In this document: positions 10,233 through 32,886 of the stretch, piece after piece
Numbering within the stretch: position 1 is the first letter of the stretch
Layout of the letters: every line of letters starts with the position of its first letter
NCBI GenBank assembly: GCA_030704615.1
Contig: CM060731.1
Coordinates: 91,326,001-91,390,000 of the forward strand
Reading direction: 5' to 3'
DNA: 64,000 bases
From: Takakia lepidozioides
Taxonomy: Eukaryota; Plantae; Bryophyta
Notes under the pieces: model-generated
Seen by the model: the letters and a program-made list of their open reading frames with translations, nothing else
Databases searched by the model: none
What the model was told of the DNA's origin: nothing
Position numbers and translations under genes: made by a program

Positions 10233-12524
10233 CTTGGCCGATGCGATTCTGTCTCCTCCTCTGCAACAGGGTCCGATTCGAGCAAGTCTCCCAGCTTCTC
10301 CTCGTCGGACGACTCTGCAAGGCTGAGTGTACGCACAAACATAGAATGAAGTACATTAGAGAATTCAAACAGGGAATCATCGGCAGGTTGCATGGTCCCT
10401 ACAACCGAAACCAATACACTTACTATGGTGCAACTCACTCGAAGACAGGCATTGGGGGAAGCGGCTTCGGGCGCCCCTGCATCGAACAAATTTCCCGGAC
10501 TTCCTCCTCTTCATCTTCCTCCTCTCCTTCCACGTCCTCTTCTGCGTTTTTGGGATCCTCAGTCGGAGGCAGACGCTGAAGGCCCGCCAAATTGTAATCG
10601 TACAAGGCCATATCCCCCTCAAATGAGAACACAAATCGGTTCGACATCCTTCCCGCCCACATACAGGCACCTGCGAATTCATACGACACAACCACAGCCA
10701 AACTCAAGAATGAGTCGCTTCCTCGCACAAGCAAACATACAGAAACGGAAATGGTGTCAATTTCGGTGCCGCATTCAATTAACGTTCTCACCTGTATTTG
10801 CAGTGACGTCAAGGACCCTGCCTTCAACATCCGTACACGTTTCCATGAGCGTCTGGATGAATGCAGGACTCCTGGTCCTCCCATACCTCCATGGCTTGCC
10901 CGACAAATCACAAAGAATGTCCTTCTCTCCCACATGGTTGAACAGGACGTTATACTCCAGTGGATCAACTGTGGAATCAACAAGTCTTCCTGCTTCACGT
11001 AATTTGAATTTTGAATGTTCCTTCACGAAGCAAAATGCCTGAAAGATAAGGGTCTGCAGAGAAGGAAATGAAAACGTCAGAGGTGGCCTACACGTACAGG
11101 GGCAATTTCGGCGCAGAAATTGACATAGCAGAGGAGAACCACAGCATACCTTCTGGCCATCGTTGAGAAGACCCTGCGTGTTGATGCAAGTCCAGATCTT
11201 TTTCAGGATGGGTGCTGCACTTCTCCCCGTCCATACTTTGATATCATTCTCAGTGACTTCTCCATCGGCTGCTAGCACAACAACACAGCCAACGTCGTCC
11301 AACATGTTGGCTGCGAACCCGAATGTGTGGCTCCAGTATCTTTCGTCGTACTTGTTCCACCAGGGAACTGAGCCCAGCCCCAGTATCTCCTGCCCATCCG
11401 GGATATCCACAAGGATCATGTCGATGGAGGCTTTCACCGCCCTGCCCCCGACTGTGCTCTTTTTGCCGTGGCTCATCGCCACAAAATACTCCATCATCTT
11501 TGTGTAGCCAGGAGTGTCCTCCATATCATTGCCAGTGGCCTTCCTCTTCCCCTTCCCCTGGTGGGCCTCGATCGCCTTCCTCAATCTCGTTATCTCCAGC
11601 CTTCTGGTCAGAGCAGTTAGGAAATTTTCATTAACACACTTCACAATTGTGGGTGTTTTGAGGACTTCCCTGCCCGCAATGTGCACCGCACGGTAGGGTC
11701 TGCCAGGTGCATCCTCGTATAGTGATCTCTTCGCAGCCGACCCCCCAGAGCGCTGGCCCTTGTGAATTTTCGGACGAGGTGTGGCCCCCTGGGTGTTTTC
11801 CTGCTGGAAATCGTCGTCGGAATCCTCCTCATCTGGCTGATTGTGTTGCTGCTTCTTCTTCTTGGGTGTGGGGGTCTTCGTCTCTTGCCCCTGTTTGCGC
11901 GTTCTTTTCTTCCTGTCCTTGGGCTCCTCAGCTGCCTGCTTCTCCATCTGCTCCTTCGCCAACGCTGCCGCCTTGGCTGACTTTCTCAGTGCTTTCTGCT
12001 TGGCTGCCTCCTCTGCTTTCAGTCTTTCCGCGTCCTCTGGTTGGGGATCCGATTGCGCCTTCATAGCCCTGGCATTCGCTTCCTTCTTCAAGTTAACCTC
12101 CGAGAGGTCAACGGTCCCACTTGGGAGATCCACATACCAGGGGCAGTCTACCAAATGCTCGGCATGCCACTCCTTCGCCATTACTTCTGTGTACATCGTT
12201 CCACGACCTCCAGGTGTCCTCCATGCCAGGAAGAATGGTGGAACCCTTTGAATGGCTCCGGACGGAATGAGTGCAAAGTTTATGTACCTGCAATCACGAG
12301 GCAGTTCAACAAAAATCATTCTACCGATGCATCATGCAAGTGGAAGTTGTCAATGCACAAGGTATTTCGGCACCGAAATACGGAGTGGACCGTGCCCCAA
12401 TTACCCAGAACTCACATCTTGCAGAGGTATATTTCGGCGCCGCAATATCCATCGCTGCTTAACCAAATCATCTAAACTGCAAATAGGGGGATGCATTGTC
12501 AGCATATTACCTGAACAGGACACG

Positions 12525-12611
12525 TGTCGTGCGCATACATATCGCTACACAACTACATCGCTGTCCAAACCACACCACACATATATGCACAATAAAGTAG
12601 TCTACCACAAT
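12525..12611 (-). repeat. Terminal repeat A (87 bp), outer copy
   Basis: Identical by eye to 12968-13054. Confidence 0.95.
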
Positions 12612-12965
12612 GATAACCATACTAGAAAAGGACACACTCTCAACACAAGAAATATGCAATCCCTCAACATCACTCTTTAAGATAATAGTCGAGCCAGGGG
12701 CACCCCAAGCTATGGGGACTCCACCCCACAACAACCTACACTCCCATCATAAGCACACTCAGATCTGAAGAATGCAGGAGCTCGGTCGCGCAGGCTCAAC
12801 TCGAGAGAGATGAGCCGCGCGACTGCCGCTCTCGTGAAGATAAGACGGACCAGGTGTCAAACTAAACTTGATACCTGATTTAACACTTGACCTAAATCCA
12901 AGTGTTAAATACAAATAACTAGTTTTATGCTAGCTGTTTTCACACTGTGCTTATTTAACTTGACA
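12611..12965 (-). repeat. Terminal repeat B (355 bp), 3' copy
   Basis: Matches 24600-24954 with two substitutions seen. Confidence 0.95.
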
Positions 12966-12967
12966 GC

Positions 12968-13054
12968 TGTCGTGCGCATACATATCGCTACACAACTACA
13001 TCGCTGTCCAAACCACACCACACATATATGCACAATAAAGTAGTCTACCACAAT
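12968..13054 (-). repeat. Terminal repeat A, inner copy; joined to B through palindrome GACA-GC-TGTC
   Basis: TGACA(12961-65) GC TGTCGT(12968-). Confidence 0.95.
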
Positions 13055-13063
13055 CGCCCCCCT
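13055..13063 (-). promoter_or_regulatory. Polypurine-tract-like site (AGGGGGGCG) directly upstream of the inner A repeat
   Basis: G-run at the position expected for a plus-strand primer if A-gc-B is the functional LTR. Confidence 0.55.
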
Positions 13064-13305
13064 AGCTGGTGGATAGGTCCCTCTACCTCCAGATAGCTAC
13101 AAGACGTAATAGCCATACTAAGTCCTCTATCACTGTCCCGATCGTACTCAAACTCTATAGACCAAGAGGCCGGGTACAAGAGTAGCCCCATCGTTAGTCG
13201 CCGTCTTGCAATCTGTGAACTTGAGCCAGGACTTCGTGTATTCAAGGTCTCCTGTAGCTGGGCCTTGCGTTGCTTGTTAGCCTCCCATGGTTGTATCCAC
13301 TCCCA

Positions 13306-14130
13306 CTATCCAATGCATTGTGGACATAACCAATCCCCATCTGGAACCATCTCAAGAGGTGGAGTCAAGCACCCCATATGCCAACCTCTAGAGCATCGAT
13401 CACACACCAGCATGGTGGCTGCCCCTTTAGCAGACCCACACAACATGCACCTCAAACCTGCAGATACCACTGCCAGGTTTGGGTCAACCCTGCCATCAAC
13501 ATTCGGAAGGTGACATGGCGCACAATTACGCACATGGTCCTTCCAAGTTATGCCATCCCGACCCTCCAAGACCAAGACGCCTGAGGGCAAGACCTCTCGA
13601 ACCCTCAAAATCACACGTCCTGCAGTCACATCCAGGGTCGTAGGAGCAGTCTGCTGCAGATAGACATAGTCACCAGGGTTGAATCTCCGAACCCCAGGAC
13701 GATAGCCCCCACCACGTATGGTAGCATACCTCAACGTATCACGGTGTTGTGCAATGGCAAGGTTCTCGAAAGCCATGGGCATGACTCTCTTGAACAACTC
13801 TGCACGCTGCTCACATGCACGTGCCCACACATCCGGATCGTCAAGGTTAAGAACTGTAGCAGCTTCTCTGCGAATGGATGTAGGCAAATCCGACTCTCGG
13901 CCAAAGAGAAGAAAGTATGGTGAGAAGGAGGCAAGTGATGCTTGCTTGCTGAACCTGTAGCCCATGGCTAACCAGGGTAACTGAAGGTCCCAATCTCCTA
14001 GGTGTCCCTTCTGCAAGCCATACTTGCGCAAACCCCTCTTTACTGTCTGAACAACTCTCTCTGCGAAGCCATCGGCCTCAGGATGATCCCGAGAAGTGGT
14101 GCGGTGGTCTATCAAGGCCTTGTCACACAA
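13306..14130 (-). CDS. Integrase C-terminal half plus PHD finger (frameshifted from upstream pol)
   Basis: HPEADGFAERVVQTVK (catalytic E), FSPYFLLFGR, PHD CMLC..CDRC..HMGC..WLCPQC. Confidence 0.92.
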   Translation of the reverse strand: MCDKALIDHRTTSRDHPEADGFAERVVQTVKRGLRKYGLQKGHLGDWDLQLPWLAMGYRFSKQASLASFSPYFLLFGRESDLPTSIRREAATVLNLDDPDVWARACEQRAELFKRVMPMAFENLAIAQHRDTLRYATIRGGGYRPGVRRFNPGDYVYLQQTAPTTLDVTAGRVILRVREVLPSGVLVLEGRDGITWKDHVRNCAPCHLPNVDGRVDPNLAVVSAGLRCMLCGSAKGAATMLVCDRCSRGWHMGCLTPPLEMVPDGDWLCPQCIG

Positions 14131-15665
14131 AGCCTGAAACTCCCCAAGAACTCTCTCCCTTGGTCCGTGAGTACCTCAGCTGGAGCACCGAATCGGCTAA
14201 GCACACAATCCAGGAATGCATACGCAGCTCCCTCACTAGCCTTATCAGGCAATGGAACCAATTCAATCCACTTGGAGAAGTGCTCCACCATCACCAACAC
14301 GTACTTGTTGTGGCGCATGGTCAGTGGCAACGGCCCTGCGAAGTCAAGACTCCACCTGTAGCCCAATCCCATGATCGGAAGAGGGTGCAATTGTGGAGTA
14401 GGGGCGTTGAATGAAGCACGCACCCTGTCACACACCATGCACCTAGCCACAAATTGTTGCACCTCTGTGTGCATACCACGCCACCAATACTGCCCCTGCA
14501 GTAGACTATGAGTGCGTCGCACCCCAAAATGCCCCAACTCCTCATGGGCATGCCGCACTAACCGTGCCCGCTGTGTTGGGTGAGGCACAATCCTCACTCG
14601 ACCATCCTCCCACACTCGGAGCAGGTGTGTCCCCTCCCACCTGAACCTCTTGGCTCGTTGTAGGATCCGATCCCTCTCCTTGGCAGTCATAGTGGCTGCC
14701 GTGTCTCCACTGCGGAGGTAGTCCAACACAACTGAATCCTCATGTATATCTTTGGTGCCACCCTGCTCATTGCTGGCCTCAGGGTCCTCAGACACTTGAT
14801 CTACAGTCATCCCTGTTGTAGGTCCAACCTGGCCTTCCGCTGCCAAGATACACAGAAATGCAGATGCATGCCATCCGGGCACCATCTCCTCGTCCGTCTC
14901 ACCATGCCACCGAGCTCCAGTGTCATCCTGCTGGCTCGTGCATGGATTGCGACTCAACCCATCTGCATTTTGATTGACCAAACCCGGTCGATGCACCACC
15001 TGAAAGTCATACTCTTGAAGGATGAGTGCCCACCGTGCAAGCTTCCCCGTAAGCTTGTCTGACTCCATCAACCACTTGAGTGGTTGGTGATCCGTGACAA
15101 GGGTGAAGAGGTTGCCGTATAGATAGCACCTGAAGTGTGCCACGGCCCACACTGCAGCTAAGCATTCTCCCTCATATGAGCTATACTTAGACTCTGCAGC
15201 ATTGTTCGAGCGGCTAGCATAAGCCACTACGAACTCTCTTCCCTCATCATCCACCTGTGTGAGCACCGCTCCAAGCCCCAGCATGCTCCAATCTGTATGC
15301 AGCTGAAAAGGACGCCCCCTGATAGGTCGTCTCAAGATGGGCGCCGAGGTCAACCTCGCCTTGAGCTCTTGAAAAGCTTGTTCTTGCTCATCTTCCCACT
15401 GCCACTCCTGGTCCACCTTGGTCAGCTTGGTTAGAGCCTTTGCAATGGCACTAAATCCCTTAACAAACCGTCTGTAATAGTTTGCTAACCCCATGAAAGC
15501 TCGAACTCGGCTCACATCCGTGGGGCGTGGAACCTGTGCAATGGACTCTACCTTAGTCTGCTGTACCCCCAATCCTCCAGGATATATCATGTGACCCAGA
15601 TACTCAATCTGGTTGTGGAAAAACTTGCACTTGCCCGGATGTAACTTCAATCCGTGCGTCCTCAA
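14112..15665 (-). CDS. RT C-terminus, RNase H, integrase HHCC and DD core
   Basis: IEYLGH, RAFMGLANYYRRFV, LHTDWS..GLGAVL, VTDHQPL, HEELGHFG..CMVC, SLDFAGP, LTDQGREF. Confidence 0.95.
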   Translation of the reverse strand: MRTHGLKLHPGKCKFFHNQIEYLGHMIYPGGLGVQQTKVESIAQVPRPTDVSRVRAFMGLANYYRRFVKGFSAIAKALTKLTKVDQEWQWEDEQEQAFQELKARLTSAPILRRPIRGRPFQLHTDWSMLGLGAVLTQVDDEGREFVVAYASRSNNAAESKYSSYEGECLAAVWAVAHFRCYLYGNLFTLVTDHQPLKWLMESDKLTGKLARWALILQEYDFQVVHRPGLVNQNADGLSRNPCTSQQDDTGARWHGETDEEMVPGWHASAFLCILAAEGQVGPTTGMTVDQVSEDPEASNEQGGTKDIHEDSVVLDYLRSGDTAATMTAKERDRILQRAKRFRWEGTHLLRVWEDGRVRIVPHPTQRARLVRHAHEELGHFGVRRTHSLLQGQYWWRGMHTEVQQFVARCMVCDRVRASFNAPTPQLHPLPIMGLGYRWSLDFAGPLPLTMRHNKYVLVMVEHFSKWIELVPLPDKASEGAAYAFLDCVLSRFGAPAEVLTDQGREFLGSFRLCVTRP

Positions 15666-16279
15666 GCGCTCAAATACCCCTGAAGGTGTCTCTCATGCTC
15701 CTCCACCGTAGCACTAAAGATGATGATGTCATCTATGTAGCACCGAGCAAACTCCACCCCTGCTAGAATCCTGTCCATGACTCTTTGAAACTCAGCGGGA
15801 GCGTTTTTAAGCCCAAATGGTAAGAACCGCCACTGGTACAGGCAATCCTTCCCGTGCTCATTGATCCCCCAGAATGCCGTCTTTTGCTTATCCGCCTCCT
15901 TGATCGGCAACTGGTGATATCCGGATCGTAAATCCAACGTGCTAAAGACCTTGGAATGCCCAATGGCATCAAAGATCTCCTCTGGTGTCGGCATGGCATA
16001 CCTATCGGACTTGGTCTGACGATTTACAGGCCGGTAATCACCGCACATACGTCTCTCCGTCCAATTGCCATAGACATCCTTCTTAGCTGGCATCACTGTG
16101 GCTGAAGCATACTCTCCACCAGAGAGCTCCACCAAACCTGCCTCCCAGAGATCTTGAGTCCTCATCTGAATCAAAGACCTCTCCATGTCACTGTATCTAT
16201 AGGGTCTCCGAAAGATTGGCGTGTCAGTGGCCAACTCAATACGGATCTCTTGACCCTTCAGTGCTCCCAAGTCCTTCAA
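15662..16279 (-). CDS. Reverse transcriptase core (Ty3/Gypsy)
   Basis: RMCGDYRPVN, FSTLDLRSGYHQ, LPFGLKNAPAEFQ, YIDD. Confidence 0.96.
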   Translation of the reverse strand: MKDLGALKGQEIRIELATDTPIFRRPYRYSDMERSLIQMRTQDLWEAGLVELSGGEYASATVMPAKKDVYGNWTERRMCGDYRPVNRQTKSDRYAMPTPEEIFDAIGHSKVFSTLDLRSGYHQLPIKEADKQKTAFWGINEHGKDCLYQWRFLPFGLKNAPAEFQRVMDRILAGVEFARCYIDDIIIFSATVEEHERHLQGYLSA

Positions 16280-16559
16280 ACTGAAGGCAAAGCAATTCCT
16301 GTAAGCCCTCAGGAACCGCCGTATACGTGTCTCTCTCCTCCAGTGACAATGCGTCCAATGTCAGGCTCCCAATTGTCCTCCGTAACTGCAACCTTAAGTC
16401 CAGTGGGCTTAGAGGTAGAGGACGCGTCCCGTGGTTGCTATGCTGCAACCTCTTGAGCAGTACTCCCTTCCTGCTCAGTCAATGACAAGGCCTCATCCTG
16501 CCCCATCATCTTATCATTGAGAACCTCCTCATCCCAAGAAGAATCCCCAACCTCATTCA

Positions 16560-18974
16560 TCACAGCTGCCTTGGCTGCCAACTCCCTTGAACCTCGAGCA
16601 CCTCCCACGTGTGCCATGGATGTCTACACCCCGTGGTCCTCACCGGCTCGCCCCCACTCGCTGCCTGTACCGTCTCGGTAGGCAGAGAGACCATCAAGGG
16701 AAGTGCACTCCGCACTCTACGTTGCTCAGCCATAGCCAAGCTGACAATCCAGGTCAAGCAATTGAGATCCATTGCTTGCCCCAACACCTGACGACGTGAT
16801 GCCTCAGAAAGAGATGGCACCGCCGTGGTCCCAGTGGAAAACCCCATAGCCCGCTCTCGCTCGTCGGCATTAGGCTCCACTAACTGCTGCAACTGAGCAT
16901 CCCACAGGAGGCCAGGTCCACCATCCCGAAAAGCATGGGATCCTGGGAAGCTGAGCAGTGTAGGTAATGCTGCTCGTGGGTGACCCATCCTGTTGACCAC
17001 TGCCAAAGGCGAACGGTCATCGTGTCTCACACGTTGAGACTGCCTCCCTGTGTCCAAAATGCCATCCACGGTGAGGTGTGCTGGCCGCTGCACCCCATCA
17101 AATGCACGCTTGAGCAGTGCGGGTGGCATCAAGTTAGTCCACCATAGTCGTGGACGATGAGCCCGTGACCCCACTGCAGCTGCATCCAGCAATACTGCTG
17201 ACCCAAGCCACGACCGGACTTGATGCACACTGGCCATCACCCTGGCCCGAGAATCACCCATCAGTGGCACATTCTCCAAGATGTATGCCGGAGATACAGC
17301 CTGATGAAGCTGCAAGTGGCGCAAAATCCGCACCATCTCCCAAAACAGACCCGTCCTCGAGTCTCGCAATCCATTGCCATGCCCGGCTGATGAATGCCCT
17401 TGGCAGGGCCAACCTGCCACTACCAGATCAATGGAGCCAACCCGCTCCAAATCCTGCGCCCCCAGCAACGCAATGTCTGCTGGCAAGGCTTGCTGATATC
17501 CACGAACTGCAGACACCGGCAACAACTCAGGGTGCTGCTGCACCATCTGAGCAACATGGCGCAGTGAGACGCGTCGTGCAGTCTCATCCCTCTCCACATA
17601 CAGGTAACGTCGAACTCGTACACCTGCCTGCAGCACTGCAGCCAATCCAGTGCTGATCCCGCCAAATAAGTCCAGAAGGCATATGCCTTCATCCGGCCGC
17701 TGCCACACAAGAGGTGTGGTGTCCAATGGCGACAACTGAGGTGGCCCTGGTGCAATCACCGCACTCTCCTCCTCTCCTGACGGTACAAAAGCTTCTACCC
17801 AAGCTTGTTGCACCCGTCCATCAGCAGCTTGCTGCAAATCCTTGCTCGTACCCCACAACGGAGTGTGAGCAACCATGGCAGGCAACTCCGCCGTACCATG
17901 CATGTCATCCTGCTCTGCTGGAGGTGGCACATCCTCTGCATGGGCATTGCCTTCCAGCAACTCTCCAGGCCAACTAACTGCAGCTGTGAAGGCGGCTAGT
18001 GTTGGCATCTTGCCCCGCTGGGCAGCTGCAATACCCCCAATGAATGTCACAGGGAGCTGTGCACGGCGACCATCCCCTGACTGCCATCCAGGCCTGTAGG
18101 ATGCTGACTCCTCCCAGAAATCCAGGGTGAAGCCCATGGGGTATAACACTGCCCCACCAACGAGGACATCGTAAGAGACCGCGTCTGTCACAATGGCCTT
18201 GGCTCGCATCACTGAGCCATCTACAGGATGATCCGGCTGCAGTCTAATAGCCAACTGATGCCGTGTCATGCCGCGAGCCTGCTCTGATCCTCCCAGAGAT
18301 GTCTGTATCTGGAAAGGACAAGGCTCCATATCCGCCTCCATGAGGCCCAAACCTGCAATAGCAGCTCTGCCCAACATCAGTGGCTGAGCTCCTGAGTCCA
18401 ACAAGACCCGCAGTGGCCGGTACTTCTTGCCTGCCGGTCCACTCAAAGTGAAAATGCCTCCCTGGTTGTCTAACAAGACAACTCCAGGTGTCACCATGGC
18501 GCGCTCAAAGGCTGGCCTAGCTGGCAGCTCCGTCAACCTGGCAGCTGCAGCTTGCCATGGCGCAGCCGTGGCAGTCTTGACCCTCAAATCCGAGGATCCC
18601 TCTGCCACTACACCTTCCACTAACTCCGCAGAAGATGAAGTGACCTCCCCACTCTCACAGAGTGTTGCTGCTAGTCTGAACACTGCAGCTGGTCTCACCT
18701 CCGGCGTCGCAATCATTGTTGCCGAGAACAGTGGGGCCTGACACACAGAGGTGGCTGCCCCCAATAACACACCGGCCGCACTAGCCTTGGCAGCAGGAGT
18801 CAGCTGCACGTGTAGCTCTCCCCAATGGCATAGTAACCTCCGCCTCGGTAACAGTCGGGCGAGAACTAGGTGCCATGGATGGCGTCGACACAGTCTCCGC
18901 CAATGTGAATGACTGAGGAAGCCTCGCCTGACGGCTTGCCTCCCCACGCTGTGGATCCAATTCCACCTCTGCAC
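16560..18974 (-). CDS. Aspartic protease plus DNMT3-like C5-cytosine methyltransferase (MTase ~16735-17690)
   Basis: VLLDSGAQ protease motif. LLDLFGGISTG (I), YVERD (II), DLVVAGWPCQGHS (IV), YILENV (VI), AHRPRLWWTN (VIII), ERERAMGF (IX), RRQVLGQA (X). Confidence 0.92.
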   Translation of the reverse strand: MQRWNWIHSVGRQAVRRGFLSHSHWRRLCRRHPWHLVLARLLPRRRLLCHWGELHVQLTPAAKASAAGVLLGAATSVCQAPLFSATMIATPEVRPAAVFRLAATLCESGEVTSSSAELVEGVVAEGSSDLRVKTATAAPWQAAAARLTELPARPAFERAMVTPGVVLLDNQGGIFTLSGPAGKKYRPLRVLLDSGAQPLMLGRAAIAGLGLMEADMEPCPFQIQTSLGGSEQARGMTRHQLAIRLQPDHPVDGSVMRAKAIVTDAVSYDVLVGGAVLYPMGFTLDFWEESASYRPGWQSGDGRRAQLPVTFIGGIAAAQRGKMPTLAAFTAAVSWPGELLEGNAHAEDVPPPAEQDDMHGTAELPAMVAHTPLWGTSKDLQQAADGRVQQAWVEAFVPSGEEESAVIAPGPPQLSPLDTTPLVWQRPDEGICLLDLFGGISTGLAAVLQAGVRVRRYLYVERDETARRVSLRHVAQMVQQHPELLPVSAVRGYQQALPADIALLGAQDLERVGSIDLVVAGWPCQGHSSAGHGNGLRDSRTGLFWEMVRILRHLQLHQAVSPAYILENVPLMGDSRARVMASVHQVRSWLGSAVLLDAAAVGSRAHRPRLWWTNLMPPALLKRAFDGVQRPAHLTVDGILDTGRQSQRVRHDDRSPLAVVNRMGHPRAALPTLLSFPGSHAFRDGGPGLLWDAQLQQLVEPNADERERAMGFSTGTTAVPSLSEASRRQVLGQAMDLNCLTWIVSLAMAEQRRVRSALPLMVSLPTETVQAASGGEPVRTTGCRHPWHTWEVLEVQGSWQPRQL

Positions 18975-20636
18975 CTCGTGGCTCAGGAACTCGTGCTGCT
19001 CCTCGAGTCACGGCTGCAGCAGACTCCACCTGCTCTAGTGGTAGTGCTGCTCCGCACATAAATCCCATGCCTCCCATATCTCCTCCCTCAGGAGCAGGAG
19101 GTGGACCATCCCGCCTGGGAGCCGGTACCGCCTGAGCTATAGCCATGGCAGCGAGCCTCTGCTCTAGCTGCTGAAGCCGATTGGCCATGCCTTGGTCAAC
19201 ACCCTGACCTCCGCGTCCTTGGCCATGTGGAGCTTGCCCTTGGCCTGCACCTCGTGCCCGACCACCTCGTCCTCTTTGGGCTGGTCCACCTCGCCCCCGG
19301 CCACCATTGTTCCCTTGGAACTGGCCTGGGCGCAACTCAGGATGCAAGTCATAACACTGGGCATCTCCATGCCCATACTTGCCACAATGCCCACACTGCA
19401 ACTGTGCAGGCTGTGCTTGTGCCGGCCTTTTGCCACTCTCTGGGCAATCTCTCTTGACATGGGGTCCTCCACATGTCCAACATATCACCCCTGGTTGCTG
19501 TTGGCCTGCAAAAGATGCCACGGGCCTCTGCACCTGAGGTCCCCTGTAAGCTCCATGGAACTTGGGCTGGGCAACCTTGCCCCCCTGACCACGCTGTTGG
19601 GCAGTCCCTTGTGCCTGTGGGCTGACAGCTGTGCCCGTGCAGGCATGTCCTTGCCAAATCCAATTGTAACAACTCGCTCCTCCACCATGTTGAGCTCAAT
19701 CCGCTCAGCCAGCAGAAACACATCTGCTAATGTGGGTTGGGCTGCTTGTAACAGGGTTGCATCTCGCACCCTTCTCTTGAGCTCCTTGTCCAGAATTCCA
19801 TACCAAAACTGGATTGCCTGAGCTTCAGTAACCCCTTGGGTCACACTTATCAAGCGCCTCATACGAGTGTACGCCTCTCGCAGGCTCTCACTGGGTTTGC
19901 GCTGGAAGTCTTGCAAACTTCGCAGCTTCTCTGTCCGTACACCTTGGTAGTTCCTCCGCAACTCCTGGAAGAACTCCACCACCGGGTTGAATCTAGGCAC
20001 ATGTGTTGTAGTCGTGGCAGGAGGAGTAGTAGCACCTTTTGAACTGGTACCACCTACAGAAGTACCAGCACTACTTGCTCCACTACTAGTGCTGGCAGTG
20101 GGAGCTATTGGTACTGATGCAGCTACTGGTCGCGTCGTGCCTCGAGTAATGGAGACGTAGTCAGGTGACCAATACATCCTCCACTCCTCAATCTCTGCTT
20201 CATGTCCTCGCCTGAACTCGTGGTAATCGTCCATAGGCGGGCCTTCCAAATGCTGGAACAGTCCCTTCCACGCCATGAATGGGGTGAATAGCTGTGGATT
20301 GCGCATCTGCTGCAAATCACACCAGCTGTCGAACTCCTGGATAAAGTCATCCAACTCGATTGTGCCCACAGCTCCAGAGTACCTACGAGGCCCCTTGGTA
20401 GCTCCATACATCTCCTCCATGTCGTCCCACAACAATGGCGAATGAAAGTGCACACCTGTTGATGAAGCCTCCGAGTCTGTGTCTGACTCTACAGTAGTTG
20501 AGGGTGGCGGTGAAGGTGGTCTGAACCGAATACCTCGTCTTGTGAACCCACTCTCACTGTCACTGCTTGTAGCCGTACTCCCCTCAAAACCCTTGGGTAA
20601 CTCCGTAATGACACTCACAATGTGCACCTCCTCCAC
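18781..20636 (-). CDS. Gag (capsid-like plus two zinc knuckles), split by a frameshift near 19500
   Basis: FQRKPSESLREAYTRM major-homology-like region; CWTCGGPHVKRDC and CGHCGKYGHGDAQC; RG-rich tail. Confidence 0.88.
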
Positions 20637-23600
20637 GTGACACTATAAGGCTCTAGTACTAATCTAATAGTGACACGGGTGGGCACCTGTTGCAGTCTAA
20701 GGGTCATATCCCAATGGCTCAGGGCACCTGCACCTGCATCCACCGCAAGAACTCCTACGGGTTGGCTGCGTCATCAACCAGCCTCACCATAGAGAAGAAA
20801 CACTGGGGGTCTTGCTGGTCATCACTCCAGCCTCACCACCGACAGCATAAACTCTAGGATTGGACCCCGGTGATCAAATCCGGCCCTAATCCCTATGAAA
20901 GCAAGCTGCCCACACAAAACCAACATGGCGCACAGTCAAGCATGTAGGTGTTGGGGGGGATCCAAACACAAGAAATCAAAAACATCAACACCCCCACACC
21001 AAAAATCCAGCAGAACGCGATCCTGCGAATATTCCCACCCAAAACCCGACTGACTGGCCTCCACCAAGAGAGGCTTTGGCAACTACAAGTACAAGGTAAT
21101 GAAAATATAGTACAGAGATGGAGGGGGAAGAAGAATAGAACCCGCCCAAGCAAGATCTAATCCTGAATCTATGCTATCAAACTTCCAGACTTCTTCAAAG
21201 TGCCTCGCTCTGCTTGAGGTAAGGTGTGTAGGAGGTATATCTATTGTCCAGAAACCTGCCACTAAATCTTGTCCCAAGTACAGTTAGCTCGCTCTAACCA
21301 ACCCTCCTCCTCTTTCCTGCCAGGGTGGTAGAGACAAAGCAACATCTGCTATCTTCCCGCTCACTGAACACTAAAGAAAAACAAAGTAGGGTCTGATAGT
21401 CTCTCAACTCGAAAGCTTTGAGACGGTTGCGGGTGTCTCATTGCGAATGACTGTGCATCGCCTTCAAACAGAACAATACTTGTCCTCGCTAATGAACCCC
21501 CGCCCGTGGTTGCCTTGTGCAGAGCGTGTCCGACTGCAAACACTGTCTAATGCACAAACTTGTGCAGCTCCTGCTCCTTCTGCTCCAGTACACCACGGCC
21601 TTGTGGCTGAACACCTTGGTCCCCCGGGGCTTCTTTGGGCTGTGTGTTCCAAGCCTAGCTTTCACCCCACTTTGGTTTTCACCTACAGCTGCAGAACTGC
21701 TGGCTCCAACAGAGTTCTGACTGGCCAAGGCGAATTGAGGCCCTCAATGCCAACTACAGCAGTCTGTTGTCTACTGCTAATGCCTGACTCCCAGTATGCA
21801 ATCAACTCGTCCAACTGTTCTCCACTCAAAATCAGTCTGAGTCATTGGGAAACATATAAATCGTGGCCCCTTGTGTGCACAGACTAAGAGAAGAACCTGG
21901 CCTTCAATTACGTCCTCATTCCCCCCAGCCATGCATGGAGTACATCCACCAAATTGTCTCTCATATAGACCAGCACAGGTTCTAGAGAACAGGATTGTGG
22001 ATTCTTTCATGGCACAATCACACTCTAAAATTCCATAGATTTTTAGCAGAGTCCCCAAAAACAGAAAACCAGGTAGATAGGTAGATTCCCCTTTCTGCAG
22101 CTATCCCCCAAAAACTGGGTCAAACAGAGTCCATTGACAAATATATGATGAATTTGGCTCCAAATCATTCAAATTAGATTAAAAAAAGGGTTTTTTTTTT
22201 TTTTAAAAGGTTTTCAAGTTTAAAAATTCAAAGTTACACCCAAAATATCTGGTAACTGGTTCCCGGTTCCCTAAGTTCTATATGGCATCCTAGGTTTCCC
22301 TGGCCACGTGCCTGCTGTCCCCTCCATTTCATTTGAGTTCAACAGCTCACCATGCTTGGAATCCCAACCGTCTTCTACCACAAACCGTGGGTGACGATGG
22401 AGCGGTCGTGAAGCGATTCTTCCCAGTGAACCCTCGAGAGACGAGTCCCCTGTGCACTTGCTATACACTCTCTTAATAGAGATCAAAAATCAGCAAGGAG
22501 ACACCATTGACGACACCCAGAGATCAGAGACAAGTACTTGCGCAGTTCGGAGGCCACAGCATCCCCTCTGGACACTGAGCGGGGAATAGCTGCTACACAA
22601 CAGCTCAGTCTATCGTCAGCTCCTATACCTACTAGCTTCCTGCCCCTGCCCCTCCTTCTTCACAACAAGAATTGACCGTGGATATGCGGAGAGGTGGTCT
22701 GCCTGGAATCACCATGGAAATTGCCAGATCGGGAATATCTGCGTCGGCATCAGCTATAGTGCCAGGGCACATAAACCAGATTGTAGGAAAACAGCTAGAG
22801 GAAATGCAGGTTATGCCAGCATCATCCAGACCATCCCTGCATCTTGGATATGAAATCCTCCAGCAGGGGCCGTTGCCTCCATTGCCCGACACTTGGTTAC
22901 ATGCTCAGCCAGACCTTCAAAAACCTGGCCCAAAATTCACTGGCTGCTCGGACACTGGCATGACCAAACCTCTTTAACTCCAATCAGCCTGCTACTGAGT
23001 TACGATCCCATCACCAAGCAAAACCTATTCCCAATGCCCAGTTGAGCTGCCAGTCTCGCATTCACTTTCCCCACCAAGGCAGCTGCAGTACACTGACTGT
23101 CTTAGCTCCCTCCATGACAACCTCCCGCATTTGGGCAAGTTTCAGCTTCACGGACCTCCCAGCGACTTAACAGCTGCTTCAGGTCATGGTCCTAGCTAGC
23201 GCATGCTGGGCTGGCAACCAGTTGCAGATCCTTATCGTGTTAGAAACCCCTTCACTGCTCTCTTTCCATCTCCTGACGCCATGCTCCATCCTCCAGCCAC
23301 TTCACTTGTTTCAGGCACCCAGGTCCCTATGGGCAGGTCACAAGCTCCTGTGCCAGCCCAGAACAGTGACATTCGACCCCTTCGTCTTCAGGAACAAGCT
23401 GGTAGCTTCCTTGATGTCATCAGTTTCCTGGACACTTAAACGGCAGTATGGTCGCCACCTCTGATTGAGGCAGAGCATAGTGGTGACGAAAGGAGAAGAG
23501 AACACAGACAGGAAAGAGCGAGGAAAAATAAGGGCGGAGAACTGCTCATGTCAAAAAGGTCAAAGCCAAAGAGGTCGAAACATTGTGCGAAGGGGACTGT

Positions 23601-24583
23601 GTTTCTGCTGCCTCTCCCACTTCAGCGCAACATTCAGCGTCCAGAGAGTGAAGTCCCTCAAAATTTAGATGAGAGTGAACCCACCGGCAACAGGAGTGCT
23701 CTCAAGCGGACATTGAGCGCCCTCCACTGACTCAGTTGAGTGTGCAAACCTTTCTGCTCATGCAGTTCCAGCAGTCAATACTCACTCCTAGTGATGATGA
23801 CGTTCATGCCCTGGAAGACCACCCTCTCCTATCACCTTCAACTGAAAGACTTGGCTGTAGACTGAGCATTCATACTGTTTGTCCTTCTCCAGCTTGAACC
23901 ATGTCACATCATGCTCATCCTCGCCAACACCTCCTGAGCATCCAACTATCCGCTCATCATAGTGTGACTCCACATTGCAGGGGCATCCTTGGTTCCAAAG
24001 GGACCACGAGGCGGATCCAGATCAAAAGCGCTTCCCACCCGAGCGCTCCGCTTCCAACTCCTCCAGCTCAACTCCTGTTGCAATTCCAAAATCGCCCGAG
24101 CTGCCTCTTGCACTTGCCAAATCACGACTACGATGCAACCACCGCGCATATGAGAGACCCCGATGTTCTGATTGCTCCGCTTGCGGTTGCGGGTTACACA
24201 GCAATGTCGGTGGAGGCACACATGGTACACGCCTGGATGCAACCAACCGTGGAGAGCCTGCATCCAGCGCCTCCTCAACATAGCGCCCCCACTCCATCTG
24301 GGCCTTGCCATCACACCACCAGCTGCCATCGACATCCTCCGCAGACGGGCGACGCCCTTACAGTGGAAGCACACCTCGCCAATGCCAACAGAAATATGGG
24401 CAGACCACCATTACTCTCTCTTCTACCACACCATTGCGACTGAAGATGTGAGACGAACTCAAGCTAGAGCCGTTCTATGCTCCTTGCTTGAGCTGCGTAC
24501 AAGACCATGACCATCTATATTATAATAGTGCTTAAAAAAAACAAAAACATCATATCTAGCTTAGCACTGGAAAACTAGATAGT

Positions 24584-24600
24584 GCTCATCTCTCTCGAGT
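24584..24600 (-). promoter_or_regulatory. Primer-binding-site position complementary to the element's own LTR (self-priming candidate)
   Basis: GCTCATCTCTCTCGAGT (24584-24600) is the exact reverse complement of ACTCGAGAGAGATGAGC (24788-24804). Confidence 0.8.
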
Positions 24601-24954
24601 GATAACCATACTAGGAAAGGACACACTCTCAACACAAGAAATATGCAATCCCTCAACATCACTCTTTAAGATAATAGTCGAGCCAGGGGCACCCCAAGCT
24701 ATGGGGACTCCACCCCACAACAACCTACACTCCCATCATAAGCACACTCAGATCTGAAGAATGCAGGAGCTCGGTCGCGCAGGCTCAACTCGAGAGAGAT
24801 GAGCCGCGCGACTGCCGCTCTCGTGAAGATAAGACGGACCAGGTGTCAAACTAAACTTGACACCTGATTTAACACTTGACCTAAATCCAAGTGTTAAATA
24901 CAAATAACTAGTTTTATGCTAGCTGTTTTCACACTGTGCTTATTTAACTTGACA
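24600..24954 (-). repeat. Terminal repeat B, 5' copy
   Basis: Matches 12611-12965; reads TGTCAAG...TATCA on the minus strand. Confidence 0.95.
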
Positions 24955-27659
24955 CACGCATTGCCGCTTTGTCGGCACCCTCCTGCTCTTCGATGTATAC
25001 GCTACGTCTTGCCTTTGCAATTTCTCTGAAAAAGAGGTTCCTCGCCACGACTGCACGTAGTTCTCCATTGTCTCAGGCTTCGTCCAGTCGATCTGTAACT
25101 TGAAAGTGGTGGTGTTGCAGTCCAATTGCTCCTGGGCGTGGGTCAGTACCTGCATCATGGCAGGTTTCCAAAACATTCATGATTTTGAAATTGCGACGAT
25201 GTCCAACACAGAATAGGAGAAAATTATACCTGATGCCACCAAGTCATGACATTGAGCCAGTCATTCATTTTGTCGTCTGTTGGCTCGATGGGAAAGTGGT
25301 ACAGCAGCTTCGTGTTTGTATGGCCGTTCCAGATTCGCAGCCACCTCGTCTGCAGCCATCTCACATCGGTCAGACAAGAACTCCAACATAAGAATCGCGA
25401 GAAGTCACAAAACAAGAATAAACACATGCTTACCTTCTCCGCCGGCTCAACACAGGACACTGCGATGTGATGAAGTTTCTCCATGGACATTTCCGGTTTC
25501 ATGGGTCTGGAGTAATGCAGTCCTATCTCTGCCAGGAACTCGGCACCAAGACCAGGGTCAGCGATTGCAACTTGCTTAACAAGTTTGGACCTGTACTTGG
25601 TCCAGGATTGCTTCCCTGCCTGCACAATATGATTCTCTATTGACGCGTCCGCCTTGTTGGGGGCATCATTCTCAAAGAACTGCCTTTTGGCATAGGCCAA
25701 GTCATCCCTGATGTTCGTCTGCATTCCCATACCCAGCAGATACAGTCAGGCCACGGATCCCTGCAACAAATAACATTAAATTGATACTGAAATTTGAGAT
25801 GAACCTCACCAAATAGAGGATCTCCACCATGGCGTCCAGTGTTGGTCGGTACCAGGTGCGATCTGCTTTCGCTAGGGACTTCCTGTACAGCTCGGGATCG
25901 AGGGACTTTTGGAAGTCCGTCAGCGGAGCTGTCCCCACTTCTTGCACTCTGTAGAGCGTATGTGCCAGATGAGTTTCCACGAAGGCCCTCTCTGTTACCC
26001 TGCCATGGAGAAAAAAACAACATGAAAATATGATTTCGGCACAGCAATCCAATTTCCAGTTCATAGAGTGTATGACAGTGGTGAACATTGCCTATTTCGG
26101 CGCCGCAATAGGCAGTACACAAGGATGTAATTGTATACTTACAGATTTATATCCGCCATGGCACCCTTCAACAGTCCTCTGTCCCTGACGTCCACCTTCA
26201 CGACAATGCAGTCCACCATGTAATGCCAACTGATATCTTGCGGATGCATTTCAGCAATGTACTCTGTCCAGGCAAGCATCATGTGGTTCCCGTCCCAAAC
26301 GAAGAACATCTTCCCTTCCATGTGTGCGAATGTGGGATTAGTCTTCAGATAGGCTTCAAACTCGGCATTAACAGTGTGCCAGTGGGGGCCCCAATTCTGA
26401 AGCTCCTCTGCAGTGGGGCCCCTTGTGACACCCTGGTCATTCTCAATGGAAACGTAGAATGCTGCCGACCCCCGTCTGTACCCTTCTCTGAAGTTGTGCT
26501 TCAGTCGATCGATATCCCCTGGCAGTGCTTGCCTTACAACTGGAAGGCTTACCATGCGACACAAAAGAACTTTGAGGTTCTCCGGATACACCATGGAGCC
26601 CAAAACGCGGCCTATGTTGCTATGAGTCTCTGCCAGCAACCTGTTTGCTGCTATGTTCATGTCTCGTGCGCTCATGAGCATACCCGCCACCAGTTTCTTA
26701 CTTGTATCACCTCTGTCACTTTCCTCACCCCTCTCACCAGCCTGTGTACTGTCCTGGAGGTTTTGCTCCTCCGCAAGCTCCAGCAGGTTCTGATCGTCGC
26801 CAAGTCGTACCACGTTATCGTCCTCTCCTTCTGTCAGTTGAATGGGCCGCCCTTCTGCAGATCCGACTCCCACATCTCCAGCGGCCTCCACCGCATCTGT
26901 GTTTTCTGAAATTGACTGCAAACCCAATATCTCTGCTTCCAGTCTCCCTAGGGGTTTTACTGGCGAAGCCATGGGCTCCTTCTGCTTTCTCGGCTTCCGA
27001 ACTCTAGGTGGGCTTTTCGGAGGCGATATCTGGGGTGTTGAATGAGGACTCGTCTGCCTCGATGCACTTCCACCTTGTGAGCGCAGCACCCGGGCAAGAG
27101 TATCCAAAGTTGACTGTGTTGCCTCGCCCCCCTGCGATCCCTCCCCAGCTCCCATGTCAAACAAACAGGAAAACATGAGACACTGCACGCCAAAAAAAAA
27201 AGGTGTAAAAGGAATATTGCGTATGGAGTGCTTCACATCCGCGAAGCACGAATCTCTCACTGGTGGGCGATCCGAGTCTCCGGATAACGAGGTCTGCATT
27301 TCATGCATGAGACGGAGCTTAAGTCGTGTCGTCGGCGGCTTCCCAAAATCCCGCGTCCTCCTCTTTGCCAGAGTCGCCTGACCTTCCACAAACTCTATGC
27401 TACCACTATGCCGCATAAGGAGAGGAAACGCAGGAGAACGTCCCTGCAGAAGGGCAAGGAGCGAGAGAGCGAAGCGGTGGAACATGCAACCACTATGCAC
27501 GAGCAGATGCGTAAGCAGCCACGTCTCCCAAAGCGTTGCCACCGTCCAACACTTTTTGCCGTATGGGTGATGAAGAGATTGTGACCCCTGACATGTTCGC
27601 ACGGATGAAGTCGACTGGAACACGACGCGTGCCAGTTCCAGCCACCAGTACAAGACGGT

Positions 27660-29420
27660 TTATCCGAATTGCGGCACCGAAATACCTTCCGTACACCGGA
27701 TGCTGTTCCCGGAGCAGCCGACATTGAATGAAATATCCGCACATCATGAAACCCAACCGCCAAGAAAATCCCCTGCCTATGACATTCAACAGTCAGATCG
27801 GTACGTTTCAACAGCGGACGGATGAATTTCGGCGCCGAAATTCATCCTATTCAAGTGCTTTCATACGCAAACTTACGAATTTCGGCGCCGCAATTCATCG
27901 CTTCCGAAGTCCTCATCCGTCATGAGCAAACCTGTCAGTGGGATATCGGAGCCGGAATTAATTCCGGGACAGTGAAAACGGTTGCACTTGGGCACATTTC
28001 ATCCATATTTCGGCGCCGAAATTCATTACGAATATCTCCGTCCGCGCGTAGACGAGGTGAAATCATCATTACTTCGGCGCCGAAATTCATCCAGAGCGAA
28101 GACTAAATTGGCACCATGCTACGCTTTGCCGCCATCATTGCCCCTGACGGATGCTGTCAATGCCTGTTGGACTTGCCATTTGTGGACATTTAACTATAAT
28201 TTCGGCGCCGAAATTATACTTTATGTGCGGCAACGTCCCGTGCGAAAATGACCACTTAATGGATACTGTAGGTTTCAAATGAAAAAAAACGGCTAAAATG
28301 CAATTAATTTTGACAGAAGTGGTTTAATATGCCGATTTCTCCATTAAATGCAGAATATTCCTGTTATATTCGTCGGAACGGGGTATTTCCAACGATTTAC
28401 GGAAAATTATCATCCAAAAGCAAAAAATAAGTGCCGGGTTTGGACGAATTTCGGCGCCGAAATTCATCCGTCGCATAGAAAATGTAATATTAGAGTTACT
28501 CATTGTGGACAGTAAGGATGAATTTCGGCGCCGAAATTGATCCATTTCAAAGAAAAATAAATATTGGAGGGAGGGCATTGGATGAATTTCGGCGCCGAAA
28601 TCCGGCGCTCAAACCCTGAAAAGAATTTGGAGGGATGAAGTCGGCTCAATTTCGGCGCCGAAATTCATTGCTCGCGAAGGAAAATAAAAAAATTCGGGAG
28701 GACTTCGGATGAATTTCGGCGCCGAAATTCATTGCTCGCGAAGGAAAATAAAAAATTTCGGGAGGACTTGGAATGAATTTCGGCGCCGAAATTCAGTGCT
28801 CGCGAAGAAAAAAATAAAATCGGGAGGATTTCGGTTGAATTTCGGCGCCGAAATTCATTGCTCGCGAAGAAAAAGGAAAATTAAAAGGGAGTACTTGGAT
28901 GAGATTCGGCGCCAAAGTTCATCTGTCGCAAAGAAAAATAAAAACAGAAAGGACTTCCGATGAATTCTGGCACCGAAATCCATCCGCAGGGCAGCAGAAT
29001 TAGGGTCGGAAAAGGAGATGAAGAATGAATTTCGGCGCCGAAATACATCCATTCTGCCGATTCAGGATTACTGTCATTCGGAAGTCGGCACCGATATCCG
29101 GACACGTGGTCAATCACGACTGTAATCAGGAACACATTCATCCGTATTTTGGCATCTAAATTCAACCCATATGTGCAGATACAATTTAATGAAGAAGAAG
29201 TTCATCCGAATTTCGGCACCGAAATCCATCCGTTGGGTGCTTGGTCAGTTTAATGAGGTAAACAAATTACGATTTCTGTTGCCAGAATTCATCCCTTGGC
29301 TTCCAAAGCTGTTACATGACAGAGATGTTCATCCAGATTTCGGTGCCGAAATTCATGGGAAGGCCTGATTTATTGTACCCCAAGTGGTTGTACATTACAA
29401 TTCAGGCACCAAATATCCGA
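27660..29420. repeat. Array of palindrome GAATTTCGGCGCCGAAATTC between the divergent genes of E2 (~62-bp tandem units at 28640-28920)
   Basis: About twenty or more exact or near-exact copies visible. Confidence 0.92.
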
Positions 29421-29558: not shown

Positions 29559-32500
29559 TTGCAGGACTTCGTGCGGAGTGTACCGAGAGGTCCCGTCTTC
29601 AAAATGGACTCCCGTGTTTGGGTCAACGTGTACTTCCATCCTGATTCTCTGAAAGCTAAAATACCCTGCGACCAAGGATTTGCGATTGTCACTGAGCAGT
29701 ACTTGTGTGTGAAGTTCGGGCTCCGCCCTGGAACGGTGTTTTTGGAAGAGGAGACGAAGGATGCTTATGGAAATTTTCTGGAAAGTGCCGTCATTCTGCA
29801 TGCAGATTTCGGAAAAGGCAAAGAGTGGCGGCTCCCAGCTTCTGAATCCATCCGGTACAGTGCCATTGGTGAAATCGTGCCTAAAGAGTTCCCACGCTGG
29901 AACTTGGTTGATCCTCCTTCCACAAGAGGGTCTGGCGTGCAAGATGTGAAGGATGTGGGCACCTCTTCACAAGCAGAGAAGCCCAAACATGTGAAAAGGG
30001 AAATCCAGGAAAACAGGGAAACAGTCGTCCACGACTTATCCAGTGACGATGAAGACTGTATGGTCCTTCCATCGTATGTTTCGAAGTCGTCCGTCACTAG
30101 GAGTGTTCAGCATACACCGTCCGACTCAACTTCCGTCCGCTCAGTAATCGACATATTGCGGAGGATGAAGACAACGGGTTCCCGCTCCAGTGACCTTCTT
30201 AGGTTGATTACGACAAAACTCCAATCCATTCTGTGGAAACTTTGCCTGATGTTGTGGATGGGAATGCTATCTACGAGTTCCCTCCAGTGCCGGCAGGCGC
30301 AGGCCCAGACGGCATGCTCGCAGAAATGAACAGGAAACATGACGGCCACCCTTGGTGTGTCACCAAAACTTCATCGTCCAACCTGGGTGATGGAGTTCGA
30401 GTGAGATATGTATTGTGTGCTGGGCATCTTAAATGTTTCTCGAGCACATGTTACCATTACACTAGCAAAGGCACCAGGAATGAGACTGACTGGATTGGCA
30501 ATTCGTCGACCCCATTTTGCCTCAAGGTAGAGTTCCTGCAGGGACGTTCAAGTGTGCCCATTGCAACGCAGCCCCTACGTGCATGGCAGTGTGCAACGCC
30601 AAGCAGTACTACGTCGGGACCGTCGGCCCAGCGTGCACCAGAGCATGCATTCACATCGGAAAGCATGAGCACCCCCTCGCCAGAGGCAATTGCAGAGTCG
30701 CTTTTCAACAAGCCCAGGATATTATCAAGGAGGAGGTGAGGTTGAGGCCGGGTGCAAAACCAAAGCAGATACAGCTCGCATCGGCACATAGGATTGCAAT
30801 TGGCAGAATAATGTCGGAGGACGGAAGCACAAGAGAGAAGCTGGGCGAGGGGGACATGAAGGACCTGCTGGAAGCTGTCTCCCATGTGTGCAGCCCCAAT
30901 GTCAGGAACCACATTGTCAGCTGCAAGAAACGAATCGGAAGAGGATCAGACATGCACTCCATCTTGGAAGTGAAGCGCACATGCGGCTACGACTTCATCC
31001 AAGGCAGCTTCTTTCCTGGTCAAGGCTCGGAGACGGACATGTGCTTCATATTTAAGATGTCAACGTGCGGACCGGGGAGCGGCGTCGATTTGGTGAAGCG
31101 GATGACCAGTGGAGACCTTTCAAATTGTTGGGTCATGTTCGACCACATCCGGTGAATTACCAACCACGATTGGGTGACAATGGGGGCACATGTATACGAC
31201 CCACATTGCAGAAAGTTGATGACCATTGCTATCTGCGAAATGAAGGGAGAAGACACAGATTCGGAGTTGCATATGTGGCGGGCAGTGGATGTGAAAGATC
31301 AGCCAGAACTGCAAACGTGGCTTGCGTGGTGGCATTATAGATTCCGCCAGTTTGGAGACTACATGAGACAGGTAACACATTTCTGTACTTGACAATTGTT
31401 CTATTTTGTGCTTGGACATTCTCCACAATCAGTGACATATCTAATTTCCTTCAACAGGACATGAGCTTGGAGGATGACACGGATATGCCGACGACGAACA
31501 TGGCCGAATCGGTGCACTCTTCCTGGCGTGCTTCCTCTGCAGCACATCTCGTTGACATGTTGACAGCAACAACAGAAGATATTGTGAGGGCCATCATGCA
31601 ACAATCTCATTACTACCAGTTTCTGGGAGGAAAGCAATGGGGTATCGGACCAGACAGGCAGGAGATGCTGATGAGGGCGGCGCATCGTTCGACCGATCCC
31701 AAAAAATGGACTGCTGCATTGCGGGAAACAATAAGGTCAACGCCGTTACACAGTCGCGGGAACTGCCTGGAGGGCGATGTCCGCAGCCGGCCGGTGAAGA
31801 GAAGAATTGAGGACATGCCCGGAGGGGATGGGGATTCATGGAGATCAGATATGAACATCCGCACTCAACCTCGGGGCGCAACGATGTTGCGTCCCACGCC
31901 TCCACGAAGCAGGACTCGTACCCCCTCTCCTGCAGCATCCATGGAATCGCTGCCAGACTCGGGACAACATGCCGAGGATGGGCATGTTGCTCCTGTTTTC
32001 GTTACCCAATACAACATTCCAATCGTGGAGCGAGATGTGTCGGCCTCGCAGTGGAGAATTGCACGGACCCGTCCGACATTTCGTGGCAAATGTTGTGCTG
32101 TTCGTGTCGACACCAACCAGAGATGCAATGAGATGATTCGGAGGAGCCCGCAGGGCAGGTGTGCCTGCCCCTTGCTTCACAGGGAGATTTGTGTGCGCAA
32201 AGTTTGTGGAGGCCACACTGAAGGAGTTTTGGTTCTGCAGGCACGACATCATGTCGTGTGTGTTCGGCAAGCCCAAGTATGGTGTACAAGGCATGCCTGA
32301 ACCACCGGCAGTCTGGCCTGTGGCAAGTGGTACAGATCTTACCCTGGAGGAGGCAGACGCTCTAGGAAGTGCAGGGTTTCGACTGGTGGAGAGGACAGAC
32401 GTTCCACGAAATCCAATTCCCAATCGTCATCCTCCTCCCACGAGAAGCTCTTCGGCCCGCATACCGGTGGGTGACCCCGCAGCTTGGCCCACCCATCGGT

Positions 32501-32886
32501 GGGGTAAACTGAAAAGACGGCGGCCACCAACAAAGGCGAACGACACCAGGATGGCCAACGCTCTTGCAATGCCCTGCATAGTGCAAGGTTGCAGGGATGT
32601 TCCTCACCCCGGGATGGGGCGCATATTTCAGTTGTCAACAGCCGGGTCTGCTGCGTGCAGTGTCGTGTATGCAATCACGGTTTCACAGTACCCAGCTTGC
32701 AACTGTGAGGACTTCCTTGTTATGGAATCGAAGAATGCAGCATACGTCCCCTGCAAACACCTTTATTACATTTTTATGAAGCGCATGAGTTGCATATCCG
32801 CAGTGGACGTCTTCATCCATGCTCCAACATTGAGTTTCAACGAGCTGCACAAGGCCCTACGGCAGGATACTGGTCGGACTGCTTGA
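29559..32886 (+). pseudogene. E2 transposase, paralog of 3307-7016, with frameshifts, a stop at 31153 and a core deletion at ~31281
   Basis: RKHDGHPWCVTKT, RPGAKPKQIQL, WVMFDHIR*, TTNMAESVHSSW, SWIM CNCEDF..PCKHLYY; same intron position (31372-31457). Confidence 0.92.

Follow-up and report, generated by a model that had tools for sequence, protein, structure and literature searches.

The 64,000-nucleotide stretch of Takakia lepidozioides DNA that was analysed (the window; contig CM060731.1, positions 91,326,001 to 91,390,000) carries a Ty3/gypsy retrotransposon on its minus strand. The element encodes gag, protease, a C5 cytosine methylase, reverse transcriptase, RNase H, integrase and a PHD finger, and its Pfam domains lie on the minus strand between 20642 and 13306. 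The Ty3/gypsy domain order of gag, protease, reverse transcriptase, RNase H and integrase is present, with weak matches for gag and protease. The repeats do not form an ordinary LTR pair. They follow the order A1-body-B1-A2-B2, and this layout is common to the relatives of the element. The features are as follows, from the 5′ to the 3′ end of the element.

24955..24958, no strand: right target-site duplication of 4 bp, with the same four bases as the left one
24601..24954, minus strand: repeat A1, the 5′ end of the element, starting with TGTC; two mismatches to A2
24826..24831, minus strand: weak TATA-like site, 44 nt before the primer 3′ end; the TATA of relatives lies 41–43 nt before theirs
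24774..24812, minus strand: local hairpin around the primer core, −27.8 kcal/mol, z −4.6
24788..24804, minus strand: predicted self-primer inside A1, with its predicted 3′ end at 24788; relatives keep a 12–13-nt core, 24788–24800
24584..24600, minus strand: putative primer-binding site, adjoining A1; exact complement of 24788–24804, without TGG
19485..20642, minus strand: gag, first piece; Retrotrans_gag at E 7e-4, below the Pfam cut-off
18781..19695, minus strand: gag, second piece; two zinc-knuckle-like Cys/His motifs seen by eye in the translation, no Pfam match
16560..19007, minus strand: aspartyl protease (weak, E 0.04) and C5 cytosine methyltransferase (DNA_methylase at E 1e-12, and homologues)
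15662..16360, minus strand: reverse transcriptase; RVT_1 at E 7e-22, best solved relative Ty3 reverse transcriptase at E 9e-30
14112..15692, minus strand: RNase H and DDE integrase (H2C2 and rve core), by Pfam
13306..14175, minus strand: C-terminal part of the integrase, ending in a PHD finger, by Pfam; no chromodomain
13055..13066, minus strand: polypurine tract, directly before B1, conserved in relatives
12968..13054, minus strand: repeat B1, 87 nt, ending with GACA; 87 of 87 positions identical to B2
12962..12971, no strand: palindromic B1/A2 joint GACA-GC-TGTC, the predicted integrase cut site
12612..12965, minus strand: repeat A2, carrying the second primer copy at 12799–12815
12525..12611, minus strand: repeat B2, the 3′ end of the element, ending with GACA
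12521..12524, no strand: left target-site duplication of 4 bp

The coding region is split over six overlapping frame pieces; therefore, the window copy is probably defective. The copy is young, with two differences between A1 and A2 and none between B1 and B2. A chromodomain is absent from the integrase C-terminus, where a search at E up to 1 matched the PHD finger alone, and no chromodomain family occurs in the domain annotations among the 120 homologue matches listed. No tyrosine recombinase was found in the ORFs scanned, which comprised, besides the long ones, 10 of the 21 leader ORFs with at least 70 amino acids. Among the matches listed, the closest named homologues are liverwort proteins with 75% identity, followed by proteins of Klebsormidium and Closterium with approximately 45%.

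Relatives were collected by a metagenome scan, which gave 79 loci (from the best 80 of 165), and by a genome scan, which added two. A C5 methyltransferase is also present in 44 of the 81 loci, and many of the remainder are too short. No relatives were found in the viral contigs searched. The two loci on prokaryote contigs, L080 and L081, are split-repeat Gypsy elements within a cyanobacterial genome assembly and are probably eukaryotic contamination. Many Marchantia gene models (P0122, P0124 and P0127–P0133) are the methyltransferase ORF of the same retrotransposon clade, with 55–63% identity.

KnitGypsy-Dnmt3 of Klebsormidium nitens combines Gypsy domains with a methyltransferase (de Mendoza et al. 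2018, PMC5890265), and the legend of Fig. 4c in that paper describes its repeats as arranged as in DIRS, defined there as A-coding-B-A-B. As described there, it resembles the window element in its Gypsy domains, in the C5 methyltransferase within pol and in the repeat layout. Klebsormidium proteins with 44–46% identity occur among the RNase H-integrase homologues of the window element, and the comparison with KnitGypsy-Dnmt3 itself was made through its description. Klebsormidium proteins are among the top RNase H-integrase matches, yet none is named among the 68 methyltransferase matches. The methyltransferase ORFs of Marchantia and Sphagnum extend the Klebsormidium finding to liverworts and Sphagnum. 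In the passages of PMC5890265 that deal with KnitGypsy-Dnmt3, no primer site, priming mode, target duplication or integration model was found, and no further paper in the literature searched uses the name. Outside Repbase, subscription journals, the additional files of Neumann and the supplementary figures of de Mendoza, that literature gave no description of how the clade primes or integrates. The relevant parts of a 2026 preprint on adenine methyltransferases likewise hold nothing on either process in this clade.

The element sits in a copy of another repeated element (11200–12520 and 24955–27660), which has long ORFs without a Pfam match; an uninterrupted relative of this host element lies at the start of the window (39–2400, by tblastx). 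Within the leader, at 22200–24400, the depth of the DNA runs is far lower than in the rest of the element. Contigs of runs that we guess to be RNA match this region in pieces with long loose ends, and other parts of the element are covered too. The region possibly consists of captured host transcript fragments specific to the window subfamily. Elsewhere in the window, arrays of 63–95-nt units around a palindromic core were observed at 1130–1636, 7168–7386, 27820–29354, 34000–34338 and 38027–40032. They adjoin two related ORF clusters without a Pfam match (3274–7016 and 30490–32886) and may be the subterminal repeats of a DNA transposon family. The window also contains the endonuclease domain of a LINE-type element (49280–50452). 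At 53686–55821 lies a PPR gene of the PLS class, which has an E motif and whose period of 303 nt is very regular.

The inserted element is bounded by TG…CA termini and a 4-bp target duplication. The duplication is exact in 9 of the 11 assessable elements and has one mismatch in the other two. A 5-bp duplication in the window was rejected: the letters fit, but asymmetric termini would be needed, and the relatives show 4 bp. Contigs of runs X1 and X5 read the empty site, with a loose end at 24954. A 2-nt spacer separates B1 from A2, and the palindrome of the B/A joint is the same in L027, L043, L050, L013, L015, L080 and L081, being kept across all lineages. For the counts of the other joint, A2/B2, duplicates (L021, L039, L047, L064, L075 and L076), loci that end too early (L017 and L050) and loci with a truncated B (L018 and L026) were dropped. 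The distinct copies that remained have 14 A2/B2 joints and 17 ends with B alone. In 12 of the 14 joints, the A end is followed by the first base past the purine tract with no gain or loss (five with a substitution at the joint). The two imprecise joints are those of L004, with a 17-nt filler and purine-tract bases, and L007, with one extra base. The mirror-image form, ABA-body-B, was seen at none of the 16 assessable 5′ ends (P ~0.003 if it were as common as BAB).

That an LTR element of the ordinary kind gained the split layout by a single rearrangement, or shows it only through faulty assembly, is extremely improbable, and for the BAB end this explanation is largely refuted. Short-read assemblies do collapse repeats, as in the circular L080, and the 17 A-body-B ends might be BAB ends that collapsed or recombined; B1–B2 recombination and assembly collapse may be alternative sources of the B-only ends. 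However, the 14 BAB ends are distinct and come from independent assemblies with different flanks. In addition, the target duplications flank the start of A and the end of B, the X1 and X5 contigs read the unoccupied site, and the layout is already in print for Klebsormidium (PMC5890265).

The window element differs from DIRS, PAT and Ngaro in its DDE integrase (rve), in the absence of a tyrosine recombinase from the ORFs scanned and in its 4-bp duplications. PAT, Ngaro and TOC1 are split-repeat tyrosine-recombinase retroelements for which a circular intermediate has been proposed. SymbioDIRS, which also belongs to the tyrosine-recombinase elements, is described with the same A-body-B-A-B layout as the window element (PMC5890265).

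A first-pass annotation had claimed a perfect 17-nt complementarity between 24584–24600 and 24788–24804 and had noted that no TGG-type tRNA primer-binding site follows the 5′ repeat. Both observations are correct. The two segments are exact reverse complements (17/17), and TGG is missing from the first 11 bases of the site, which starts with ACTCG. Because the element lies on the minus strand, the primer site is read from 24600 to 24584 and comes directly after the 5′ repeat. Not one more base pairs at either side of the duplex. The repeat match spans 24600–24954 versus 12611–12965; as judged from the joint of one copy (L081), the primer site probably starts at base 24600, and the repeat would then end one base earlier. 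The chance expectation for a 17-mer site matching the 354-nt repeat is 1.6e-8. None of 4062 control 31-mers, drawn from both window strands, complemented the repeat over more than 12 nt, a length that three of them reached. Variants in conspecifics provide two hints: none of the 40 substitution rows listed (of 79) falls inside either 17-mer, and common variants at 24583 and 24805, which are unphased, would create an 18th pair. Small indels occur among the conspecifics at 24583–24587.

Priming by a host tRNA or tRNA half, with an incidental match to the repeat, is very unlikely. Such halves are reported to prime approximately 2% of plant LTR elements (PMC6317226); however, the lack of TGG at the site argues against a tRNA, and the site tracks its own repeat even though lineages disagree at as many as 9 of its 13 positions. 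ARAGORN found no tRNA in the window. An Rfam search at E up to 10 gave nine matches, all far below the gathering score and none to a tRNA family, although this is a weak test.

The annotation had suggested looking for compensatory changes across subfamilies. Repeat profiles matched 46 of the 79 metagenome loci, and a 5′ A copy was present in 16 loci after four duplicates were dropped. The primer is wholly or mostly deleted in three of these 16 family copies (L004, L010 and L036), while the 13 family loci with an intact primer region have Watson–Crick pairs at 9–12 of the first 12 positions. The primer of this large family differs from that of the window at 6 of the 12 core positions (11 of 17 for L027), and its site differs in step. 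An anchor-free search in a third lineage, L013 and L080, returned a 16-nt and a 13-nt complement, respectively, as the longest inverted repeat, in both cases abutting the repeat end. Scored between these two copies, primer and site match at 11 of 13 positions, and the copies are distinguished by two compensated, two-sided changes. A joint MAFFT alignment placed their primers out of register with the others; therefore, it is by position that they are taken as homologous. The L080 contig closes into a circle through a 127-nt terminal overlap, so its primer and site may stem from different copies.

Each primer was compared with its own site and with the sites of other lineages. The own site is matched at 13 of 13 positions in the window, L027, L013 and L080 and at 12 and 10 positions in two more copies, whereas matches across the three deep lineages, among which pol DNA identity is 65–72%, number 4–10 of 13. 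Fourteen copies were also aligned for a pair count, which left out L013 and L080, the primer-deleted L004, L010 and L036 and the duplicates L035, L047, L054 and L058. Two-sided changes were found at 12 of the 17 pairs, and 83.6% of the cells pair, compared with 35–49% in slid controls; none of 500 shuffles reached the pair count. Most of these two-sided changes set the window row against one family and therefore count as one comparison, and a within-family permutation test of pairing was not significant (p 0.076 for 12 pairs and 0.18 for 17 pairs). L046 and L048 have two compensated core changes in common. Consequently, the independent evidence consists of the three lineages and two small within-lineage events. 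Three deep lineages thus have the pairing, each in its own letters. The proposal that self-priming replaces tRNA priming is supported in two respects: every lineage has the duplex right at the end of the repeat, and two-sided changes distinguish the lineages. On these comparisons, the window element very probably primes itself.

A less favoured explanation, which we regard as unlikely, is that the complementarity is real but serves as an RNA leader helix or a single-stranded-DNA snap-back, while something else primes. Such a snap-back would resemble the internal complementary region of DIRS-1. The duplex of L027 and L012, approximately 24 nt when G–U pairs are counted, exceeds the need of a primer, and the split-repeat layout is also found in tyrosine-recombinase elements (PMC5890265). 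On the other side, the repeat boundary is in every case the exact end of the duplex, whose 3′-most pair is invariant in 14 of 14 copies, and no other primer site is present. The A2/B2 joint of L081 also speaks against this explanation, as it is without the base that pairs with the last base of the primer, as if DNA synthesis starts there.

Returning to self-priming, we infer that the 3′ end of the primer is fixed at 24788. The base missing from the L081 joint is an A, which in the related L080 stands just before the site; this one copy suggests that the A belongs to the primer site and that 24601 would be the first base synthesised. The length of the complement is 12 nt in some copies and 13–17 nt in others. 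A TATA or TATA-like sequence lies 41–44 nt before the primer end in five of six copies, being weak in the window and absent from L027. A pyrimidine-purine start gives a primer of 12–14 nt in all six, and the equivalent position in the window is 24800. The distance from promoter to start was judged by the spacing rule for plants. Where the annotation had placed the start of transcription near 24804, promoter spacing would move it to ~24800, while the 17-nt length of the complement favours 24804.

The primer sits in a local hairpin in all three lineages, with z values of −3.6 to −5.3 in four of five copies. The hairpin was found too in L053, L013 and L080, and that of L027 is weak (z −2.0). Because the left arm of the hairpin precedes the predicted start, the full hairpin would be present only in the 3′ copy of the repeat, and we infer that it masks the 3′ primer copy. 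In the folding calculations, the last four primer pairs have probabilities of only 0.3–0.55. In the large family, the primer and the primer site are both closely followed by the same 12-nt word, which thus forms a direct repeat (~1867–1878 and 2037–2048 in L027).

Self-priming is known from yeast. It has been shown for Tf1 and proposed for Tj1 (PMC4600332), and it is described as common, with a three-duplex structure, in the chromodomain-bearing Tf1/sushi group (bioRxiv 10.1101/2022.12.06.519325). Among the LTR elements of plants, 12% are predicted to use it, the groups concerned being Tcn1 and TAR (PMC6317226); PHD fingers, methyltransferases and liverworts go unmentioned in the pertinent sections of that study. 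The annotation had cited the Tf1/sushi type for this mode of priming, and the likeness of the window element to that type is confined to the priming step. In Tf1/Tf2, Tj1 and the Tf1/sushi elements including plant Tcn1, as in the window element, the site abuts the 5′ repeat and complements the predicted 5′ end of the RNA, and the enzymes are those of Ty3/gypsy elements. However, Tf1/sushi elements are described with a chromodomain, ordinary LTRs ending with CA and a three-duplex 'pretzel', while the window element has a PHD finger, a methyltransferase, split repeats and a local primer hairpin. Side helices of the Tf1 type were not above chance in 21 duplex tests on seven copies (p 0.10–0.97 versus shuffles), a crude test that short helices could escape. 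On the features tested, the window element is not a member of the Tf1/sushi group. In the TAR group of plant Ty1/copia elements (Houba and Osr-1), self-priming was likewise predicted from complementarity alone; TAR differs in its Copia superfamily and ordinary LTRs (PMC6317226).

The self-primer and the purine tract would define the two ends of the cDNA, and in the A2/B2 joint the primer-defined end is joined bluntly to the purine-tract-defined end. If the primer fixes the cDNA end in this way, the inserted termini are not the cDNA ends; they lie elsewhere, at the conserved palindrome inside the repeat, and the integrase likely cuts there. We consider it reasonably probable that the element is a self-priming Ty3/gypsy retrotransposon with split A-body-B-A-B repeats whose integrase cuts a palindrome inside the repeat.

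In the proposed pathway, the RNA would start in A1 at ~24800–24804, and its first 13–17 nt would pair with the primer site. The RNA would be cut after 24788, probably by the RNase H of the element by analogy with Tf1, in which the primer is reportedly cleaved by RNase H. Reverse transcriptase would extend from this cut, so that the right end of the cDNA would be 24601. Plus-strand synthesis would start right after the purine tract, yielding a linear BA-body-BA cDNA without TG…CA ends, and blunt joining of its two ends would create the A2/B2 joint. The integrase would then make a staggered cut in the 5′ repeat, at its GACA-GC-TGTC joint, and leave two recessed CA ends with 2-nt overhangs; recessed ends produced by a staggered cut after CA on both strands are typical of retroviral integrases. 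Finally, the integrase would insert A-body-BAB. The A-body-B copies could arise if both joints were cut, or if a circle with one repeat were cut at its only joint. Copies of the form ABA-body-B are likewise expected from a symmetric circle, and their absence (0/16) is left unexplained by the model.

An alternative with a lesser, though appreciable, chance of being correct retains self-priming. Reverse transcriptase would jump between the cDNA ends and copy B again with no ligated circle, and the integrase would process internal joints. Such a jump also predicts the exact A2/B2 joint (12/14), and it could account for the one-sided outcome at the 5′ ends. The imprecise joints of L004 and L007 are what end joining predicts, although they are not decisive. 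Internal cutting by the integrase in end-joined cDNA is the reading that we favour, with some reserve.

A related activity is known from foamy virus, whose integrase cuts the palindromic LTR–LTR joints of circles (PMC1180852). In both systems, a DDE integrase would turn a palindromic joint in continuous DNA into processed ends. The foamy virus palindrome is the joint of true cDNA ends as described there, whereas the window element has its palindrome within the repeat, at a distance of 87 nt from where the cDNA is predicted to end.

Self-priming alone is ordinary among LTR elements, and its occurrence here would add a non-chromodomain Gypsy lineage to the known self-primers. The split-repeat layout is more unusual, and it is in print as one figure legend, that for Klebsormidium. 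Beyond the window, we give about even credence to the broader proposal that a widespread green-plant Gypsy clade gave up cDNA ends as integrase substrates. Its DDE integrase would open a joined molecule at an internal palindrome, end-joined (circular) cDNA would be the normal route, and the hairpin would hide the 3′ primer copy so that only the 5′ copy primes. The ends of such elements would be mis-called by standard LTR finders. If the proposal is true, nature provides in this clade a case where joined DNA is the routine substrate of a retroviral-type integrase. It would then become possible to test directly whether LTR circles are real integration precursors, a question of long standing, and the Marchantia homologues would offer a tractable host.
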